This document shows, one piece after another, positions 418 through 8,024 of a stretch of DNA of 20,000 bases. The translations under genes and the position numbers were made by a program. The notes under the pieces are model-generated. The model worked only from the letters and a program-made list of their open reading frames with translations, was not told the origin of the DNA and searched no databases. The number at the start of each line of letters is the position of its first letter. Within the stretch, counting starts at the first letter, position 1. Source of the DNA: an uncultured virus (IMG/VR IMGVR_UViG_3300011646_000014) (lineage: Duplodnaviria; Heunggongvirae; Uroviricota; Caudoviricetes); IMG/VR virus record IMGVR_UViG_3300011646_000014, positions 44,947 to 64,946 of that record; one strand, 5' to 3'.

Positions 418-492
418 GTTATCCCCCTGTTTTTGAGGAGAATAACACATAAACAAAGATTTTAATTTACACTAATCCGTGAATTTTCAAGA

Positions 493-843
493 TTATTCAC
501 AACTGATATTTAGCTTCTGTTTATAGTAATCGATAGCCGATTTTAACTCTTTATCCAGTTTTCCTTTGGAATATTCATTTGGCTGTAATTGAATAAGTGC
601 GGGTGCGTATTCATCATTGTAGGTTGTTGGCCAATCAACACAGATAATTTTCTTTTGCTCAATTGGATCTGTTTTGGGGTTGTCCAGTTTATCTAAGTAC
701 CCAGAAATCTTCTTGTCAGATTGTTCAAACTGAGCCTTGTAATCAATAGACTCGGGTTTAGTTTCATGCTTTTGTCCTGAATCTTTATCGCATCCAGTCA
801 GACTTAATATTGAAACTGCTATGAGCAAAATTTTAATTTTCAT
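493..843 (-). CDS. Lipoprotein of unknown function
   Basis: Basic N-terminus, hydrophobic stretch and lipobox LTG-C. Confidence 0.85.
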   Translation of the reverse strand: MKIKILLIAVSILSLTGCDKDSGQKHETKPESIDYKAQFEQSDKKISGYLDKLDNPKTDPIEQKKIICVDWPTTYNDEYAPALIQLQPNEYSKGKLDKELKSAIDYYKQKLNISCE

Positions 844-852
844 ATTATTAAA

Positions 853-1395
853 TCAAATTAGTTTCTTAGAATGATCTTCTAAAGTATTAATTATATCAAG
901 ACCATTTACCACAATCATATCTATTCTTTCTGCATCAATATGATCAATATCATTTTTGATATTAAGGTCTACATTTTTTAGCAAAAGCGTCTCTTTTAAA
1001 AGAGAGTCTTGATAATCAAGCAAGCACTTCTCAACATCAATTTTAACCTTTTCCCACAAATATCTGCCTGTTACAGAGTAGTAGAAAAAATTAATTGGAT
1101 TTCCATATGGGAAAGCTTCAATCTGCGCATTTAGGTAGTCTAAATGGTTGTTGACTTTTGCTCTTAAAATTAACAAATCAGCAAGATTTTTAATTTCTGC
1201 ATTTTCGTTATCACTTAAAAATAATTTTTCTTTGATACCAAATTCAATCGAAAAATCATTAATTTTTATGATTTCGTCAGAAATGTTTTTCAAAAACCTC
1301 ATCTGCAAGCGCATATGTATTTTTTGCAAAATAAGGTATAGACCACCAAGAGCGCCTACTATTTTGAATATCCATATGAGATGTTCTATTACCAC
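853..1395 (-). CDS. Membrane-anchored hypothetical protein (candidate effector of the kinase/STAS module)
   Basis: 180 aa ORF with N-terminal TM segment (LIWIFKIVGALGGLYLIL) and helical-looking soluble part; starts 12 nt after the STAS gene. Confidence 0.75.
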   Translation of the reverse strand: MVIEHLIWIFKIVGALGGLYLILQKIHMRLQMRFLKNISDEIIKINDFSIEFGIKEKLFLSDNENAEIKNLADLLILRAKVNNHLDYLNAQIEAFPYGNPINFFYYSVTGRYLWEKVKIDVEKCLLDYQDSLLKETLLLKNVDLNIKNDIDHIDAERIDMIVVNGLDIINTLEDHSKKLI

Positions 1396-1407
1396 TATTA
1401 ATCCAGA

Positions 1408-1743
1408 TTAATTCTTTAGTTTAATATTTTCTGCATCTTTAATATATTTCCAAACCATGTCAACCAATGCAGGTCTTCTTGGAAAATCTAAAACCAATAT
1501 ATCTCTCAATTCCGAATAACTGAATCCATGATCTCGGACAAGACCTCCAAATGCCTCTTCCAAGAAAGATGATCCATTCATAGAGACACCTGTGAAATCT
1601 ATATAGATTTTTTCGCCATCATTAAGCTTGTTTAATCTTGGCAAAAGAACATCCTCACGAAAAGCTTCGCCAGTATATGTTCCGTGTATTCTATAGCGAC
1701 CTGATGGTCTTCTGTAAAATTCCTTAGCTACACTTAAGTTCAT
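1408..1743 (-). CDS. STAS-like domain protein (DUF4325-type)
   Basis: Motifs GRY..G..TGEAFRE..L.P, IDFTGV...GSSFLEEAFGGL typical of stand-alone STAS-like DUF4325 proteins. Confidence 0.85.
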   Translation of the reverse strand: MNLSVAKEFYRRPSGRYRIHGTYTGEAFREDVLLPRLNKLNDGEKIYIDFTGVSMNGSSFLEEAFGGLVRDHGFSYSELRDILVLDFPRRPALVDMVWKYIKDAENIKLKN

Positions 1744-1761
1744 TTCAATCTCTTCTAAACC

Positions 1762-2775
1762 TTAACAGTGCTTACTAACATCAATACTAGAATTGTTTAA
1801 TGGTATTAACCATGACACAATTGTACCATCTACAACTGTTTTGTAATTTTGTTTTTTATACCTATTTTCATCTTGCACACCTTTCGCCCAATAACCTTTT
1901 CTGCTATGAACCATCATTACCGAGCCTTTAATTTGATCACATACAGCTTTCATGTCCTGAAAACCTTTTCCTCTGTTGGGCATTTCAGTTGCAGTTTTCT
2001 GATATTCAGTCGCAATCTCGATCTTTGAGTCATCTTTAAGCCGCCCCCAAGATTCAACATTAAAAAACCGCTCTAAAGTTCCATCTGTAATTTTGGTTGG
2101 AATAGTTTTGGGAATCGTCCGACCTAAATCAGAGATAATAACGCTACATCTATCAGGTGTAATTGATAAAAATAAATACCATTTTTTATATGTATCACTT
2201 AACTCGTATGCATGATTAACGACATTTATCACAGCCTCACCTATAGCTGTATTGATTACGTCAAATGTTTCTGAATCCTCCCCAAATTTATCTTTTAATA
2301 CATTTTCGATTTCATCATAATCATCGCCAAAATCTGCATTTTCACCTGAGAAAGTATACCAGCGCTCAACTAGATTGTGAGAAGACTGTAGCTCATCAAT
2401 ATTCATACGTTTATAGATTTTTAGCTTGCTCAACATACCTGACACAACAGTATTGGAAGATGACCTTCCACGACAGATTACTGTAGGGTGTTTATCTAAA
2501 ATCTGATGAAAATGAATAGTAGCCATTGGAGTCAAAGATTTGACATTAGTAAAATCGAAGTACGGTCTTAAATTGGCGTTATCATGGTACTTTACAGCAT
2601 TTATCGCCCTCATAGTTTCGTGCCTATAAGAACTGTTGCCCAAATCAAAACATTCAGGCATAGGAACGTGAACATATTTATGTTTGGGGGTAGCTCTGGT
2701 TTTTGAGCCCATTTTCCGTAATTTAATATTTTTTCTAATCTGTATTTCAATTTGATGATAAATTTGTTTTTTCAT
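1762..2775 (-). CDS. GHKL (HATPase_c) ATP-binding protein, RsbW/SpoIIAB-like kinase with N-terminal STAS-like domain
   Basis: N-box EAVINVVNHAY, G1 DLGRTIP, G2 RGKGF, G3 GTIVSW; no obvious H-box or TM; N-terminal 'YFDFTNVKSLTP' resembles a STAS strand-loop. Confidence 0.85.
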   Translation of the reverse strand: MKKQIYHQIEIQIRKNIKLRKMGSKTRATPKHKYVHVPMPECFDLGNSSYRHETMRAINAVKYHDNANLRPYFDFTNVKSLTPMATIHFHQILDKHPTVICRGRSSSNTVVSGMLSKLKIYKRMNIDELQSSHNLVERWYTFSGENADFGDDYDEIENVLKDKFGEDSETFDVINTAIGEAVINVVNHAYELSDTYKKWYLFLSITPDRCSVIISDLGRTIPKTIPTKITDGTLERFFNVESWGRLKDDSKIEIATEYQKTATEMPNRGKGFQDMKAVCDQIKGSVMMVHSRKGYWAKGVQDENRYKKQNYKTVVDGTIVSWLIPLNNSSIDVSKHC

Positions 2776-2806
2776 AAACTTTTTTGAAGAACTTCTTAAG
2801 CAAAAG

Positions 2807-2835
2807 AATATACATATTTAATTTTAGGCATTCAA
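2807..2835 (-). promoter_or_regulatory. Candidate sigma70 promoter of the moron operon
   Basis: Minus strand TTGAAT (2835-2830), 17-nt spacer, TATATT (2812-2807), about 30 nt upstream of the kinase ATG. Confidence 0.55.
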
Positions 2836-2849
2836 TCACTTATCTTCAT

Positions 2850-3443
2850 TTATTTATCAGACAAATCATCCAGATACTTTTTAAACTCTCTCGCTGCTGC
2901 ATGTTGGGCTACACGCACAATTCCTGCTTGAGTCGAAATGTTTCGCTTATGAGCTTTAACAACAGCATCAAGATAGTGCTTATATGTACCGTAAGACATA
3001 TACATAATGCTTTCATGTGAATGTCCTGCTGATACCAGTAGTTGTAAAGAATCAAACCAAGAATCAGTATTTTCAACTTGCTTAGCTGATCTGCCACGGC
3101 GTTTCACGGGCTTCTCATAAAAATAAGCCTTATTTGCTTCTAAGGTTTTTCTTAGCAATTCAATATAAATATCAGGATTGCTGATTTTTGTTTTGATGAC
3201 TGAATCAATATCTAAATCAGTAACCAAGTTAATCATTGAATAACATTGAACTTCAAATTGAGAAATTATGGTTTCCAAAATCTCATCTGAATAGACTTCT
3301 ATATTGTTTAAATTGGTTTTTATTTCTGATGAAGCGACAAGCCACAAATCAAAATCTTTCATAGTGATTTGTCGAACATCAAGATCAAAATCAGCCACAT
3401 TCAATTTTAATGGCCTATTAGATGCAATAAAAAAATCATTCAT
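2850..3443 (-). CDS. Tail assembly chaperone (probable)
   Basis: Directly downstream of tail tube gene; C-terminal 'WFDSLQLLVSAGHSHESIMYMSY' resembles the gpT-like part of chaperones. Confidence 0.65.
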   Translation of the reverse strand: MNDFFIASNRPLKLNVADFDLDVRQITMKDFDLWLVASSEIKTNLNNIEVYSDEILETIISQFEVQCYSMINLVTDLDIDSVIKTKISNPDIYIELLRKTLEANKAYFYEKPVKRRGRSAKQVENTDSWFDSLQLLVSAGHSHESIMYMSYGTYKHYLDAVVKAHKRNISTQAGIVRVAQHAAAREFKKYLDDLSDK

Positions 3444-3459
3444 GATGAAATCCTATTTA

Positions 3460-3484
3460 GGCACAGGCATTAACTGCCTGCACC
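3460..3484 (-). other. Intergenic RNA stem-loop after tail tube gene
   Basis: Minus strand GGTGCAGGCA-GTTAA-TGCCTGTGCC, 10-bp stem with two G-U pairs, no U-tract. Confidence 0.5.
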
Positions 3485-3495
3485 AATTAAACAGC

Positions 3496-4251
3496 TTAAG
3501 GAGTTGCTGGAATCGTCACAATATGACCGTAAAGCCCCAACATATCATCAGATGCTTTCGATACATCTGCCAATGCCTGACCTTCAATCTGATACTGCCC
3601 CAATTCTTCATGAATCAAAGCGAATGTGGTTTTTGGAGATTTCTTGGTGCGCCATAGACGTACCGCAATATTGTCGCCATTGGCTGTATTGATGCCTTTA
3701 AAGAACAACTCGTATTCTTTATTAAAATCATTGGCAAGAGTCGTTTGAGTCACCGCCCCCGTGGTATAGGTCGCTAAAATCGGCATAGTCAAACCGGCAA
3801 TATCTTTAAAGATTACAGTGCCGAATTTTGCATCAACTGTGTATTTGCTTTCCGCAATGGTTACTGGTGTACCCGAAGTCGAATCGGTAAATGAAACTTG
3901 AGAAAGATTGTAGCCATCAAGTTTAATTTCATCACCAACCACTACAGTCCCAAGTGATACTGCTGATTTGGTAGTGCTTACAATTGAATGGTTTTCACCA
4001 GACACAACGTATTCCAAGTTTTTTTCATTCAACTCTTCAATTTGCCCAGAAAAGTTGACGGACGTGGTTTTAACCATGGTGAAATCGGTGCTGCGCTGAC
4101 CTGACATGCTTTCCTGATGCTCAACAACATCTGCATCAATTTCAAGCTCAAACTCAGGCACGTTACCAATCTGACGCATAGCACCAGCTACCCCATTGGC
4201 AATTGCAGACAGATAAAATTTGCCTTGCAATGACATATATTTTTTAGCCAT
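3496..4251 (-). CDS. Major tail (tube) protein
   Basis: 'GKFYLS....MRQIGNVPEFELEI' N-terminus typical of siphovirus tail tube proteins; position after neck genes. Confidence 0.85.
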   Translation of the reverse strand: MAKKYMSLQGKFYLSAIANGVAGAMRQIGNVPEFELEIDADVVEHQESMSGQRSTDFTMVKTTSVNFSGQIEELNEKNLEYVVSGENHSIVSTTKSAVSLGTVVVGDEIKLDGYNLSQVSFTDSTSGTPVTIAESKYTVDAKFGTVIFKDIAGLTMPILATYTTGAVTQTTLANDFNKEYELFFKGINTANGDNIAVRLWRTKKSPKTTFALIHEELGQYQIEGQALADVSKASDDMLGLYGHIVTIPATP

Positions 4252-4432
4252 CTACCTTTACCTCTTTAGTTGTTTTGGTTGGGGTGGTTTGTTTCGTTTC
4301 TGAAGGTTTTTTGAACTCCTCAATCACACCACGCCCCAAAAGTTCTTGAATCTGTGCATCGCTTAAACCACCTACAATGTCACCAGAATGAAAACGCCCG
4401 ACTGTTTGCCGGGCGATGTATTTTTTAGCCAT
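4244..4432 (-). CDS. Small virion-associated protein, paralog of 5794..6141 N-terminal domain
   Basis: KYIARQTVGRF.SG..V.GL...QIQELL..GVIEEFK aligns by eye with 5794..6141. Confidence 0.75.
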   Translation of the reverse strand: MAKKYIARQTVGRFHSGDIVGGLSDAQIQELLGRGVIEEFKKPSETKQTTPTKTTKEVKVDG

Positions 4433-4440
4433 GTTTTTAC

Positions 4441-4863
4441 CTATATGAATTTTTTAGATTCGAAAATTGCTGTTAAGTACGCAAACCCAGTTGAAAAGCC
4501 CTCTCTCACATCAATCAAATCGAGTGGTCGCACACTTGATGGCGACTGCCAACCTGACAACAACTCAATTACCTCTTCTAGCAATTCACCCGCCTCATCA
4601 GTCACAACATTTCCGTTGGTCATTTGGGATTGAGCATTTCGACAAGCAACCGTAACTGCCCAACGGATGCCCAACATATTGACCTTGGAATTTCCCGAGC
4701 TATCAACTTTAGTGATTCGCTGAAAGTTGACATGTGCTGCTGGGGTGACCTGTGACATTTCTGTGACTTTGACCGAATTCAACGGCGTATAGATCTGCTT
4801 AAATGCTGAAATTTCTTTTAGCTTTTCCGCAATCTCGTCACGCACAGCAAAGAAATTAGACAA
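4441..4863 (-). CDS. Tail terminator/completion protein, Mu gp37-like
   Basis: Probable TTG start at 4863 (MSNFFAVRDEIAEKL) after GGAG; 'W.VTV..RN' and 'L.GWQ' pattern; position before the tail tube. Confidence 0.7.
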   Translation of the reverse strand: MSNFFAVRDEIAEKLKEISAFKQIYTPLNSVKVTEMSQVTPAAHVNFQRITKVDSSGNSKVNMLGIRWAVTVACRNAQSQMTNGNVVTDEAGELLEEVIELLSGWQSPSSVRPLDLIDVREGFSTGFAYLTAIFESKKFI

Positions 4864-5338
4864 GTATAAATCTCCCAATAATGTCTAAGATATTTTCCTC
4901 ATCCTCAGAATTAATGCCAAGATAAGTGCGGGGTGGCACTTCAACAGACTTCACTTTGCGCCAGTTTCCTGCCACATTAAAAGTTAGATAATCAGCAGTT
5001 TTAGGAAGAATCGTGCCGCCAAAATGCATCATAGCTGCATACTCCTCGCCAGAACCCCATTCCACACCGTTTGACAATGTTTGGAAATTTAGGCCATTCA
5101 TTAAACGGCCTGTATCTCGAAGCGTTTGACCACCTTGCAGTTGCGCCCTCCAAGATTGTTTCCATGGATTACCGTCAACATCGTTTTGATTTACAAACCG
5201 CATCTGGCTAGAGGAAACGCCATATCCACCAATTTCGGTAAACATCTCATCTTTACGCTTGTCAAAATCAGCGAGTTGTTGAAGAACCTGCATCGCTACA
5301 GATTCACCATCAGCTTTGATTGAGATAAAAGCAGCCAT
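4856..5338 (-). CDS. Virion morphogenesis protein (Mu gpG / P2 gpS-like)
   Basis: Motifs DG.PW, TLRDTGRL, YAAMMHFGG, VPPRTYLGI. Confidence 0.9.
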   Translation of the reverse strand: MAAFISIKADGESVAMQVLQQLADFDKRKDEMFTEIGGYGVSSSQMRFVNQNDVDGNPWKQSWRAQLQGGQTLRDTGRLMNGLNFQTLSNGVEWGSGEEYAAMMHFGGTILPKTADYLTFNVAGNWRKVKSVEVPPRTYLGINSEDEENILDIIGRFILV

Positions 5339-5345
5339 CCCCACC

Positions 5346-5786
5346 TCACTTGACGCTAGGCATCATGTCCAAAGTCGCATCTCCAAACACACCACCCTTA
5401 TAAGTAGTGCCGATTGGCATGGTTGATGGCGCATTGACTGGCTTTTCTTCAGTAACTTGATTGCTTTCATTGAGGATATTTAAAACTGCTTTTCCGTCGG
5501 CAATGCGCTTTAGAAAGTCGATCTCCGCTTTGTAGCGGTTTTCGACCTCTTCAGTAGGTTGCTGAAAGTAGAGTCGATAACGGGCTATATTGCATGCCAC
5601 TCGTTTTAATGTGCTTGGCACACTCGGTAGTGGTAATTGGTACTTCACAGCAATATAGCTATCGATTTCTTCAGCAGCATCTTGCAACGCATCAGCAATA
5701 GAACTTACCGATGTCTGCATGGCTTCCAGATTGGCAATTTCACTAAACCCAAATCGTGCTTCAAGATCTTGTCGAGTTGCATACAT
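5346..5786 (-). CDS. Head-tail connector, Mu gp36-like (DUF1320)
   Basis: MYATRQDLEARFG...ALQDA..EIDSY...Y.LPL...P..L...ACNIARYRL...RY...I.FLK.IADGK. Confidence 0.9.
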   Translation of the reverse strand: MYATRQDLEARFGFSEIANLEAMQTSVSSIADALQDAAEEIDSYIAVKYQLPLPSVPSTLKRVACNIARYRLYFQQPTEEVENRYKAEIDFLKRIADGKAVLNILNESNQVTEEKPVNAPSTMPIGTTYKGGVFGDATLDMMPSVK

Positions 5787-5793
5787 ATGACAC

Positions 5794-6141
5794 CTACTTG
5801 GCATCATCTGCCGCTTTTGATGTTGGCTTCTTCGCTGTAGTGGCTTTTAACTGCTCATCAAGTTTTAACAACTGAGCCTTCAAATCCGCGATTTCGGCTG
5901 CATCTTTGGTTTTTTCATCAACCAATTTCTGATTATCGGCCTTCAAATCCGCGATTTCGGCTGCAAGTTGAGCTAATTGAGCTACTGTGCCATCAGCTTT
6001 GGATTGCGATTCCTCTGGCGGCTTAAATTCTTCAATAGCACCAGAATCCAAAAGGGCTTGAAGTTGTTTAGACTCAAGCCCTTCAATTTCCTGTCCTGGT
6101 CGAAAATGACCAATAGACTGTTTTGCAATGTACTTTGGCAT
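5794..6141 (-). CDS. Post-capsid protein with coiled-coil (Mu gp35 / lambda FI position)
   Basis: Small N-terminal domain plus heptad-rich tail with AAEIADLKA twice; between capsid and gp36-like genes. Confidence 0.7.
   Translation of the reverse strand: MPKYIAKQSIGHFRPGQEIEGLESKQLQALLDSGAIEEFKPPEESQSKADGTVAQLAQLAAEIADLKADNQKLVDEKTKDAAEIADLKAQLLKLDEQLKATTAKKPTSKAADDAK
5876..5965. repeat. Perfect 27-bp direct repeat (5876-5902 and 5939-5965)
   Basis: gccttcaaatccgcgatttcggctgca occurs twice, 63 bp apart. Confidence 0.95.
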
Positions 6142-6151
6142 TTAAGCCTCC

Positions 6152-7225
6152 TTAAACAAAGCCACGACCACCAACCAGACCATTCTTGTTGTTTGGTACG
6201 GCAAGCGGTGAAGATTCACCCAACATCTGAATGCTAGAAGGATTTTTTTCCTGCCACTGGCTTAAGAAAAACTCTAAAGGCTGGCCAAATGCTTCAATGT
6301 TTTGAATTGCGCAGTGAGCAATCCAACCGTTTGCATCAGAAACCAGACCAAAGAAGTCTTCAGGAATAAAACGCTCTGACACCCCATTTAGGTTGTGCGT
6401 TGCGTCATAAGTCCAAATCTGAATGTTATCAATATTGCCACGGAACTGCGGTTTTGATGGATCATCAAAAGTTGGGGTGATTGGCACACTGATCGAAGCA
6501 TAAGGTTTAATGAATTTTTCTTTAAACTCTTCGTTCTGCATCAATGAGTTAAAAACCTTTGACGATGTGAGCGCCAAGTTTGGCGCGACACCAGCATGCT
6601 CAACTGAAATATTGATCATCGATTGAATATCTTGCACAGGTGTTGCATTGGCCTGATTCCATTTTACCAATGGAGCAAAATTACATGCGGCATTACGCTC
6701 GTAATCGACCGTATATGAAGGGAAATCAGATGATGCAAACGTGGTCTTTCCATACAACAAGACATCGCGAGAGATTAAGAGTTTTCGGTTCTCGATCGAC
6801 TGGCGTAGGTGAATTGCCTTTTGAGCCTGATCAATTAATAGTAGTTCAGCGTCACTTAAGCGATTTGACCCTGTCGCCACAATACCGTAACGACGCAATT
6901 GAGTGACCAAGGCGGTATCTTGGACATCACTTGGCATGACGGTTACCATTGGCTTTAAATAAGCTGGCTTTACAAAACCAACTTTGCCTGATTCTGCCAC
7001 ATTGATTTGTCGACCAGCGACATTAGGCATCACGAACGGTGCTAGTGGAGTTGCAGTATTAAGCTCACCCACAGGAACTTCTTTTTTGTTATACGAAACA
7101 CGTTGAGGGAAGAACTTATCCATCAACCAAGTATCCACCTTTTTAGTGGTGTCTGTTAAAAGCACGAGTTGTGGAATATCCAATAACTCAACTGGTGCAT
7201 TTTGAAATGTAAAGCTAGTGCTCAT
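6152..7225 (-). CDS. Major capsid protein (lambda gpE family, HK97 fold)
   Basis: 'WLMDKFFP', 'LAPFV.P...G', 'PAYLKP', C-terminal 'ESSPLAVP'; 357 aa. Confidence 0.9.
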   Translation of the reverse strand: MSTSFTFQNAPVELLDIPQLVLLTDTTKKVDTWLMDKFFPQRVSYNKKEVPVGELNTATPLAPFVMPNVAGRQINVAESGKVGFVKPAYLKPMVTVMPSDVQDTALVTQLRRYGIVATGSNRLSDAELLLIDQAQKAIHLRQSIENRKLLISRDVLLYGKTTFASSDFPSYTVDYERNAACNFAPLVKWNQANATPVQDIQSMINISVEHAGVAPNLALTSSKVFNSLMQNEEFKEKFIKPYASISVPITPTFDDPSKPQFRGNIDNIQIWTYDATHNLNGVSERFIPEDFFGLVSDANGWIAHCAIQNIEAFGQPLEFFLSQWQEKNPSSIQMLGESSPLAVPNNKNGLVGGRGFV

Positions 7226-7227
7226 AT

Positions 7228-7611
7228 TTACCCCACGACTTTGCGTAATTCAATTTTGTTGTTAAGGCCTTGCGCACGCACTGCATCGTATTGAGCTTCA
7301 GTCAGTTTTGTGCCATTTACTGTAACTACGGCTAAGTCGTAAGCACCTTGCACGTAGATGGGCATTTCAAGTCCATTGTTGGCGTGATATGTCGATTGTT
7401 CTGCTGTCATGTCTCCCACCACAATCGCTTGCCAATCTCCAACCACACCTGATGTGATGGCTGGATGCGTTGCGACGTTCGCAGCACTGACTGCCACAAG
7501 ATCACCGCGCTTGTAAGCAACCCCTGCGGTCGGCTTCGCATTTTCAGTACGAACACCATCACCAACCACCAGTTGGCGACTTTCGATTGTTTCTGTAATT
7601 GTTTTACCCAT
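7228..7611 (-). CDS. Head decoration protein (lambda gpD-like)
   Basis: 127 aa immediately upstream of a gpE-type capsid gene; 'YKRGDLV', 'IYVQGAY' motifs. Confidence 0.75.
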   Translation of the reverse strand: MGKTITETIESRQLVVGDGVRTENAKPTAGVAYKRGDLVAVSAANVATHPAITSGVVGDWQAIVVGDMTAEQSTYHANNGLEMPIYVQGAYDLAVVTVNGTKLTEAQYDAVRAQGLNNKIELRKVVG

Positions 7612-7613
7612 AA

Positions 7614-8024
7614 TTAATTACCTTTCTGTTGGGCTGCTGCAAATTGATTAAATGCATTGTCTAATGCTGAACCTTGATGCTGTTGGCCAGTGCCACCCTG
7701 ACCACCTGTAGCTTGATGGCTAAACAAGTGCTGTAGGTGGGCTGGAACGATGTTAGTTTGCTGTTGTCCCAGCGCAGCGGGCTGTTCTGGTGTCTTGCTT
7801 GAAAACTGACGCAGTTGCTTTGCAGTAAATGCAAAAGTTGCATCATCCATATTTGTATATGCGGTTTTATCTTCAGCACTGAATTGAACTTTTAATTCAG
7901 TTTCCAAAGCCTGAATATCGCTTGTACGTTTTTCAGCTTGAAACTTTTTAAGTTCTGCCTGAGCTGCATCACGCTCTTGTTCAGCTTGTTTTTGAGCAGC
8001 CTGTGCTTTTTCTAATTCGGTCAC
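7614..8024 (-). CDS. Nested in-frame scaffold protein (internal start)
   Basis: Minus strand caaGAGGAcaccaacGTGaccgaattagaa: SD plus in-frame GTG at 8024, at the protease/coiled-coil boundary; 136 aa. Confidence 0.6.
   Translation of the reverse strand: MTELEKAQAAQKQAEQERDAAQAELKKFQAEKRTSDIQALETELKVQFSAEDKTAYTNMDDATFAFTAKQLRQFSSKTPEQPAALGQQQTNIVPAHLQHLFSHQATGGQGGTGQQHQGSALDNAFNQFAAAQQKGN

Follow-up and report, generated by a model that had tools for sequence, protein, structure and literature searches.

A mobile prophage cassette encoding a STAS-GHKL kinase, a stand-alone STAS protein and a single-pass membrane protein: a candidate kinase-gated defence switch

Which process is controlled by three tightly packed genes for a kinase, a STAS protein and a small membrane protein that travel together in a prophage? 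The locus lies in a 20,000-nucleotide stretch (the window) that forms the end of a 64.9-kb provirus record. An earlier note, made from the sequence alone, had read the trio as an orphan partner-switching module carried on a prophage moron, in which the membrane protein could be the partner released by the kinase/STAS switch upon phage attack. The analysis described here favours, with a probability of about one half, a kinase-gated toxin–antitoxin defence switch with a membrane effector. The closest homologues carry Acinetobacter names (A. pittii, 78%; A. schindleri, 61%; and A. baumannii for the third gene), which points to an Acinetobacter as the probable host.

Table 1. Features of the cassette and its surroundings (positions refer to the window).
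Feature	Position	Strand	Basis
Inserted segment (moron), ~2.4 kb	450..2864		Missing from sister prophages (BLASTN)
STAS-GHKL serine kinase, 337 aa	1762..2775	-	Folds, conserved boxes; phrog_3364
Stand-alone STAS protein (DUF4325), 111 aa	1408..1743	-	PF14213
Single-pass membrane protein, 180 aa, GTG start, candidate effector	853..1395	-	Hydropathy, model; phrog_33562
Lipoprotein, 116 aa, probably separate accessory gene	493..843	-	Within insert; phrog_478
Candidate sigma-70-type promoter TTGAAT-17-TATATT	2807..2835	-	9/12 consensus positions; 60 nt ahead of kinase start, within insert
197-aa gene behind major tail gene, probable tail chaperone, outside module	2850..3443	-	phrog_14432, no known function

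The kinase, STAS and membrane protein genes follow the 197-aa flank gene in series, with gaps of 18 and 12 nt between the three, and their coordinates and lengths were reproduced as first described. They belong to a series of accessory genes that separates the tail genes from a tape-measure-sized gene. Several of the accompanying claims held only in part. The trio is AT-rich as stated (30–36% GC across 501–3000, versus 41–45% across the structural block at 3501–8000), but 32% GC is likewise found in the gene preceding the cassette (3001–3500), so that low GC is not restricted to the trio. The proposed promoter of the module does exist within the insert, but sites of this kind were found 9 times in a scan where 17.2 would be expected by chance, and the site therefore provides no promoter evidence by itself; a simple promoter pattern was missing ahead of three of four related kinases. 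Contigs from the RNA-labelled runs X15 and X19 overlap parts of the stretch, although contigs cannot show transcription. Finally, the insert sits directly behind the 197-aa gene, as claimed, but the label of this gene as a tail chaperone rests on its position.

The limits of the insert were defined through a search with the 197-aa gene, which found nine viral loci, one of them identical to the stretch. In seven of the other eight (L167-L173) both flanks align: the BLASTN match ends at 2865 and restarts at 449, the two flank matches being 18 nt apart in these insert-free sisters, whose copies of the 197-aa gene are 92–95% identical. In the eighth locus, the match ends soon past this gene and is followed by a different ORF. 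The common break indicates that the region of ~450–2864 is present or absent as one block, in agreement with its description as a moron. The block contains the trio, as had been noted, together with the candidate promoter and a fourth gene, that of the lipoprotein. Because of its low GC and the many other sites occupied by the trio elsewhere, the block was probably gained by insertion rather than lost from the sisters.

The surroundings show further peculiarities. The PHROG 478 label of the lipoprotein is recombination directionality factor, a misfit with its lipoprotein signal, and a 116-aa gene resembling it comes after the trio in locus L004; the downstream genes listed for the relatives show no constant fourth gene. 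Elsewhere in the provirus, beyond the window, a gene close to the lysis genes codes for a protein of 4365 aa (G000:C1:4673-17770, minus strand). The region adjoining the left end of the stretch (G000:C1:41130-45402) holds accessory membrane or secreted and regulator-like genes that vary among the seven aligned sisters, and by its gene content appears to be an accessory-gene hotspot ahead of the tape-measure-sized gene.

A scan with 34 sequences taken from the kinase alignment yielded 108 loci (49 in species genomes and 59 in viral contigs), all picked by one kinase motif, so that the following counts hold for that clade only. The STAS gene lies directly behind the kinase in 103 of them, and the complete order of kinase, STAS and membrane protein is intact in 98, which bears out the linkage of the third gene to the pair. 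In five further loci the third gene is broken or displaced (L022, L030, L037, L074, and L076), and the remaining five comprise three interrupted by a contig end or an insertion sequence (L026, L043, and L103) and two weak matches of another type (L055 and L056). A transposase-like gene separates kinase and STAS gene in L026:6449-7339, while in L022:4854-6278 both are joined in a single 474-aa frame followed by a gene of the third family, either a natural fusion or a frameshift.

The upstream gene was assessed in 70 loci, out of 75 candidates from which the stretch's own copy and four fragments were dropped. It is repressor-like in 22 of the 70, with a median gap of 60 nt to the kinase frame, and otherwise includes tail, tape-measure, terminase, Q, holin, and antirepressor genes, as well as housekeeping genes. 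Among the upstream genes from species genomes, 7/34 are of phage type, which means that part of the prophage bias stems from the way in which the loci were sampled. Plasmids of Acinetobacter indicus (NZ_CP044461.1, 35% identity) and Vibrio alfacsensis (NZ_CP140107.1, 26%) carry kinase homologues as well. The trio is a mobile unit present in many other viruses and bacteria. Regarding the defence islands in which its homologues had been envisaged, 13 of 142 immediate neighbours have PADLOC matches, six of which were set aside because they are RpoD, ABC ATPases, repressors or an antirepressor, leaving seven credible defence genes, a count that comes with no background rate; among the downstream neighbours in relatives, credible defence genes number 4/72.

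The kinase holds a basic N-terminal arm (residues 1–36, net charge +10), which forms one basic helix in the model, followed by a STAS fold (31–128) and a SpoIIAB-like GHKL domain (134–332). All the motifs originally quoted are present, namely the N box (E180-Y190, with N184 as the predicted catalytic residue), D216-G218, R268-G271, and G317-T318. In an alignment of 137 kinase relatives (133 of the best 150 matches, after short ones were dropped, plus four from the search that gave the Acinetobacter names), N184, H188, D216, G218, and G271 are invariant in every sequence, and the arm ahead of the STAS domain has a median of 44 residues and a net charge of +13, reaching at least +5 in 132/137. 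The family is large, with 782 clusters at 50% identity with E ≤1e-10, and 1723 at E 0.001.

Matches to the HATPase_c_2 and RsbW/SpoIIAB profiles remain below the cut-off (26 bits versus 145 for the latter), and the best matches of a PDB sequence search are of the SpoIIAB/RsbW type (E 8e-5 to 5e-4). The best fold match of the AlphaFold2 model (pLDDT 75) is SpoIIAB (1L0O; Z 12.0, rmsd 3.0, 138 residues aligned), other matches being 6M36 (Z 9.5) and SiaB-SiaC (6KKO; Z 9.2, rmsd 4.2, 149 aligned). The STAS-like segment recognised at the N-terminus is recovered as a middling match of residues 31–128 to the anti-sigma antagonist STAS protein 4QTP (Z 7.5, rmsd 3.0, 92 aligned). The STAS fold runs straight into the GHKL fold, and neither Pfam nor NCBIfam gives a HisKA/DHp match, consistent with the missing H-box; a two-component histidine kinase was ruled out by this absence of a DHp domain. 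Sequence and fold matches thus support an RsbW/SpoIIAB-type serine kinase paired with a STAS substrate.

Two homologous systems have recently been characterized by Chambers et al. (EMBO J 2026, PMC13373217): VapKSC (PDB 9Z7O) and CapK-CapS (PDB 9Z71-9Z73). In the latter, CapK phosphorylates CapS given ssDNA, and CapK homologues sense DNA damage. In the former, VapS neutralises the PIN toxin VapC, for which its tail (residues 94–116) is needed and which is abolished by the S48E substitution; the operon confers ~2 logs of protection against one phage, whereas the activation of VapK by ssDNA was predicted, not measured (PMC13373217). The passage from kinase to STAS protein, partner release and phage block is therefore already documented in a homologous system, and the module can no longer be called an orphan.

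Homology to VapK was measured against five natural kinase-DUF4325-PIN loci (L134, L175, L176, L177, and L178) and not against the published VapK itself, which the kinase of L177 resembles by eye. The kinase profile aligns with these five kinases over 254 columns spanning both domains (probability 99.1%, E 6.8e-19; 95.8% with a single-sequence profile), and the STAS proteins of all five loci hold PF14213, as in the stretch. A tree of 96 kinases groups the 81 that are of the stretch's type in one clade (support 0.87), separate from the VapK type (0.98). With a single VapK-type sequence, this is the sister of the stretch's family (0.93), whereas with five of them a type associated with a two-helix membrane protein becomes the sister (0.995) and the VapK type a separate clade, so that the deep order is unstable.

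The predicted ssDNA-stacking aromatic residue of VapK, F54, was located by eye from the appendix of the paper (whose numbering is offset by +5 relative to the sequence given there) via L177 and L134. It corresponds to Ser80 in the stretch's kinase, and is aromatic in 7/137 relatives versus 4/5 VapK-type kinases. The position of CapK W68, also mapped by eye, is likewise aromatic in 7/137. One VapK-type kinase, that of L178, itself holds an arginine at the stacking position.

The STAS protein matches PF14213 (DUF4325) with 51.1 bits (cut-off 23) and carries the DFTGV...GSSF motif that had been pointed out. Residues S58 and S59 are invariant in 84/84 non-redundant copies, all of them only 99–118 residues long and devoid of a wHTH. 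A search of the PDB with the STAS profile retrieved VapS (9Z7O) as a weak match, third of four (E 0.22), which places S58 on VapS S48; Ser58 is thus the predicted phospho-acceptor. In this weak alignment, the protein ends 7 residues past the alanine aligned with VapS A91, versus 25 for VapS.

The third protein holds a hydrophobic helix at residues ~5–23 (hydropathy peak 1.86, with no later value above 0.62) and is modelled as entirely helical (pLDDT 84). It has no match in Pfam, NCBIfam or PADLOC; its fold finds nothing at E 0.001 among viral models (best E 0.13), a third-gene profile nothing below E 0.08 in PDB sequences, and its language-model features only matches at chance level (≤0.81). 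The third gene of the stretch and those of its relatives share the same architecture. For this comparison, the genes of the 98 intact loci, Marinobacter phage AS1, and L003-L007 were combined (104 genes of 138–214 aa; 84 at 80% identity). An N-terminal helix with hydropathy of at least 1.6 is present in 70 of the 84, and a second helix in none. The number of Lys/Arg residues flanking the helix (n=84) has a median of 4.5 after it and 0 before it, which predicts that the helical domain is cytoplasmic, on the same side as the STAS protein. The broad family has no invariant residue, as would fit a non-enzymatic effector, and its mean column identity is 17%, versus 45% for the STAS protein.

All 104 third genes fall into one single-linkage BLAST cluster, which the stretch's protein reaches via L005/L006 (E 1e-5, then 4e-4 to L079). 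A profile of 79 third genes outside its subclade leaves it unscored, and its profile–profile probability against the broad family is 1–15% (reversed control, 0.5%). On these links, the stretch's third gene and the broad family probably share a common ancestor. No PIN domain was found in the stretch's protein or in any of 78 third genes by a scan that detects PIN in five control loci (one below the cut-off), and PADLOC-type defence matches among the same 78 amount to seven families with one member each. Among 8000 candidates scored, a weak test, longer fused forms of the third gene numbered zero.

More specific identities have also been considered for this protein. A HEPN RNase was suggested by R78, N83, and H84, which do not vary among 24 close relatives, but this reading was rejected due to a His-to-Phe replacement in L006 and to the absence of invariant residues in the broad family. 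For the third protein of L023, the nearest named family by language-model features is KilB (PF27072), a lethal plasmid gene, with a score of 0.87 that is below the 0.9 bar (130/256 features shared, no alignment); nine of its ten best named matches agree on it. KilB was not seen for the stretch's protein, had no match in the Pfam and NCBIfam scans of the third genes, and yielded no papers in a full-text literature search, so the link to this family is a lead only.

A wider, unbiased sample of 400 Gammaproteobacteria genomes held 66 DUF4325 matches in 59 genomes (including the unpublished genome G044, which enters this tally only). Of these matches, 34 lie in frames of at least 330 aa, and those checked (L117) are fused HTH-GHKL-STAS proteins. 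Such fused proteins of ~340 aa (most of L117-L145) are the commonest DUF4325 form in this sample. The 50 loci inspected include six of the kinase-STAS-membrane type (in two of which the kinase is truncated or has no score), two with a PIN-type third gene (one by Pfam, the other by motif only), two with a different membrane third gene, and five kinases with no recognised third gene. The membrane form is therefore commoner here than the PIN form (6 versus 2), and the VapKSC survey retained, by its method, only loci with vapC (PMC13373217). The two loci with a different membrane protein (L149:118-1986 and L153:412-2568) are sister-clade kinase-STAS pairs whose third gene apparently encodes two membrane helices and has no Pfam match. 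In L148, L154, L157, L159, and L160, a short STAS-GHKL kinase neighbours a DUF4325 gene but no recognised third gene, which may represent another output class; pairs of this kind indicate that kinase and STAS protein can have other outputs. Hence, as far as the sampled sequences tell, the third-gene slot varies between kinase clades (PIN, two-TM or none) and not within the stretch's clade, where it is almost always filled by a helical protein with a one-helix anchor. A freely variable effector slot, which the earlier note had raised as a point to check, is accordingly not supported.

The folds and topologies of the three proteins, the conserved active site and serine, the gene order, the mobility, and the homology to VapK and VapS are directly established. 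In the proposed mechanism, the STAS protein would silence the membrane protein's cytoplasmic domain; an infection signal would activate the kinase, which would phosphorylate STAS Ser58, and the phosphorylated STAS protein would free the membrane protein, leading to cell arrest or death. Phosphorylation and partner release are proposed by analogy with VapKSC, while linkage and topology point to the membrane protein as the partner of the STAS protein. As the earlier note had stated, the provirus scan gave no match to PF04542 (sigma-70 region 2) or PF07228 (SpoIIE/PP2C phosphatase), which fits a one-way switch. The trigger and the output are the least certain parts: the trigger is probably a nucleic acid, perhaps read by the basic N-terminal arm and not via the aromatic residue of VapK/CapK, and the output might be membrane damage or arrest. 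The lost aromatic residue, the missing VapS-type tail, the weak family link of the third protein, the few defence neighbours, and the pairs free of a third gene count against a defence switch. The bolder proposal that the module represents an undescribed but widespread class of prophage anti-phage systems, joining the VapK/CapK switch to new single-pass effectors and to a different trigger acting via the basic arm, falls somewhat short of even odds; it would make the membrane effector a third output of the kinase-STAS switch, after transcription (CapKS) and RNase release (VapKSC).

Some of the same observations could be accommodated if the membrane protein were the input of the system, sensing DNA injection or envelope damage and controlling the kinase-STAS pair, with the kinase or the modified STAS protein acting on a host protein as output. 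The missing ssDNA-sensing residues would call for another input, the inhibitory tail of VapS is missing from the STAS protein, and the third protein, as might be expected of a sensor, evolves rapidly and shows no catalytic signature. Its gene, however, occupies exactly the order and position of the VapC slot, and a short N-terminus with a median of no Lys/Arg before the helix leaves hardly anything outside the membrane to sense with, making a sensor unlikely. Lysogenic-conversion signalling with no phage conflict, such as an envelope or biofilm control similar to that of SiaB/SiaC, would agree with the fold match to 6KKO and with the scarcity of known defence genes next to the cassette, but it is very improbable, given that neither a phosphatase nor a fixed output gene travels along, that the distribution is patchy and mobile, and that the nearest characterised homologues are immune components.

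The position of many cassettes close behind repressor-like genes, and the response of CapK homologues to DNA damage, would also suit a module that tunes the cycle of its own prophage, for example as a DNA-damage sensor for induction or lysis timing, and not a defence. This is distinctly unlikely, though somewhat less so than the SiaB/SiaC-like signalling, since the module is wholly missing from sister phages, occupies many unrelated insertion sites (housekeeping neighbours included), and encodes three proteins that all lack a DNA-binding domain. In lambda, moreover, the place behind cI is taken by rexAB, exclusion genes that are expressed in the lysogen. The kinase-gated defence switch with a membrane effector remains the preferred reading.

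Since the logic of STAS-dependent release by a kinase has already been shown for VapKSC (PMC13373217), the module is a membrane-output cousin of that system, and its novelty is lower than the earlier note held. Its membrane form was undescribed in full-text searches, although it could figure in large tables of predicted defence systems; the parts of PMC12904381 and PMC13092281 that were available contain nothing on it, and the available part of Matelska et al. (PMC5499597) describes the coupling of PIN genes to DUF4325 genes. If the proposed switch is true, the kinase-STAS immune switch, described as recently as 2026, would gain an output that acts on the membrane, and both DUF4325 and a family of small membrane proteins that has no name would be assigned a function. 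Small, self-contained and carried by Acinetobacter-type prophages, such a cassette could alter the phage range on lysogens, which is relevant to phage therapy.

Among the known systems, SpoIIAB-SpoIIAA and RsbW-RsbV share with the module the GHKL fold with its N, G1, and G2 boxes and the absence of a phospho-histidine domain, but the stretch's kinase has an additional STAS domain. The fused HTH-GHKL-DUF4325 proteins combine the same GHKL and DUF4325 domains, but in a single polypeptide with a DNA-binding domain and no membrane partner. In CapK-CapS, a STAS-GHKL kinase gene is also directly followed by that of its STAS substrate. However, CapK carries an HTH and CapS a wHTH, both missing from the proteins of the stretch, for which no repressor function is thus expected, and an immune operon lies downstream, whereas the downstream genes of the stretch have no PADLOC match.

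The search for a known system that would already cover the trio gave no PADLOC match, but it identified CapKS and VapKSC as close relatives. The module shares with VapKSC the gene order, an HTH-free STAS-GHKL kinase, a DUF4325 STAS protein that stands alone and carries the same serine, and a third gene directly behind. On the other hand, VapC is a PIN RNase and the stretch's third gene encodes a single-pass helical membrane protein; the basic N-terminal arm of the stretch's kinase (36 aa) has no counterpart in VapK; the predicted ssDNA-stacking aromatic residue of VapK is not conserved in the stretch's clade, where a remodelled site elsewhere is possible; and the STAS protein is without most of the inhibitory tail of VapS. 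The module is therefore not a member of VapKSC, but its switch, by analogy, would work like that of VapKSC.
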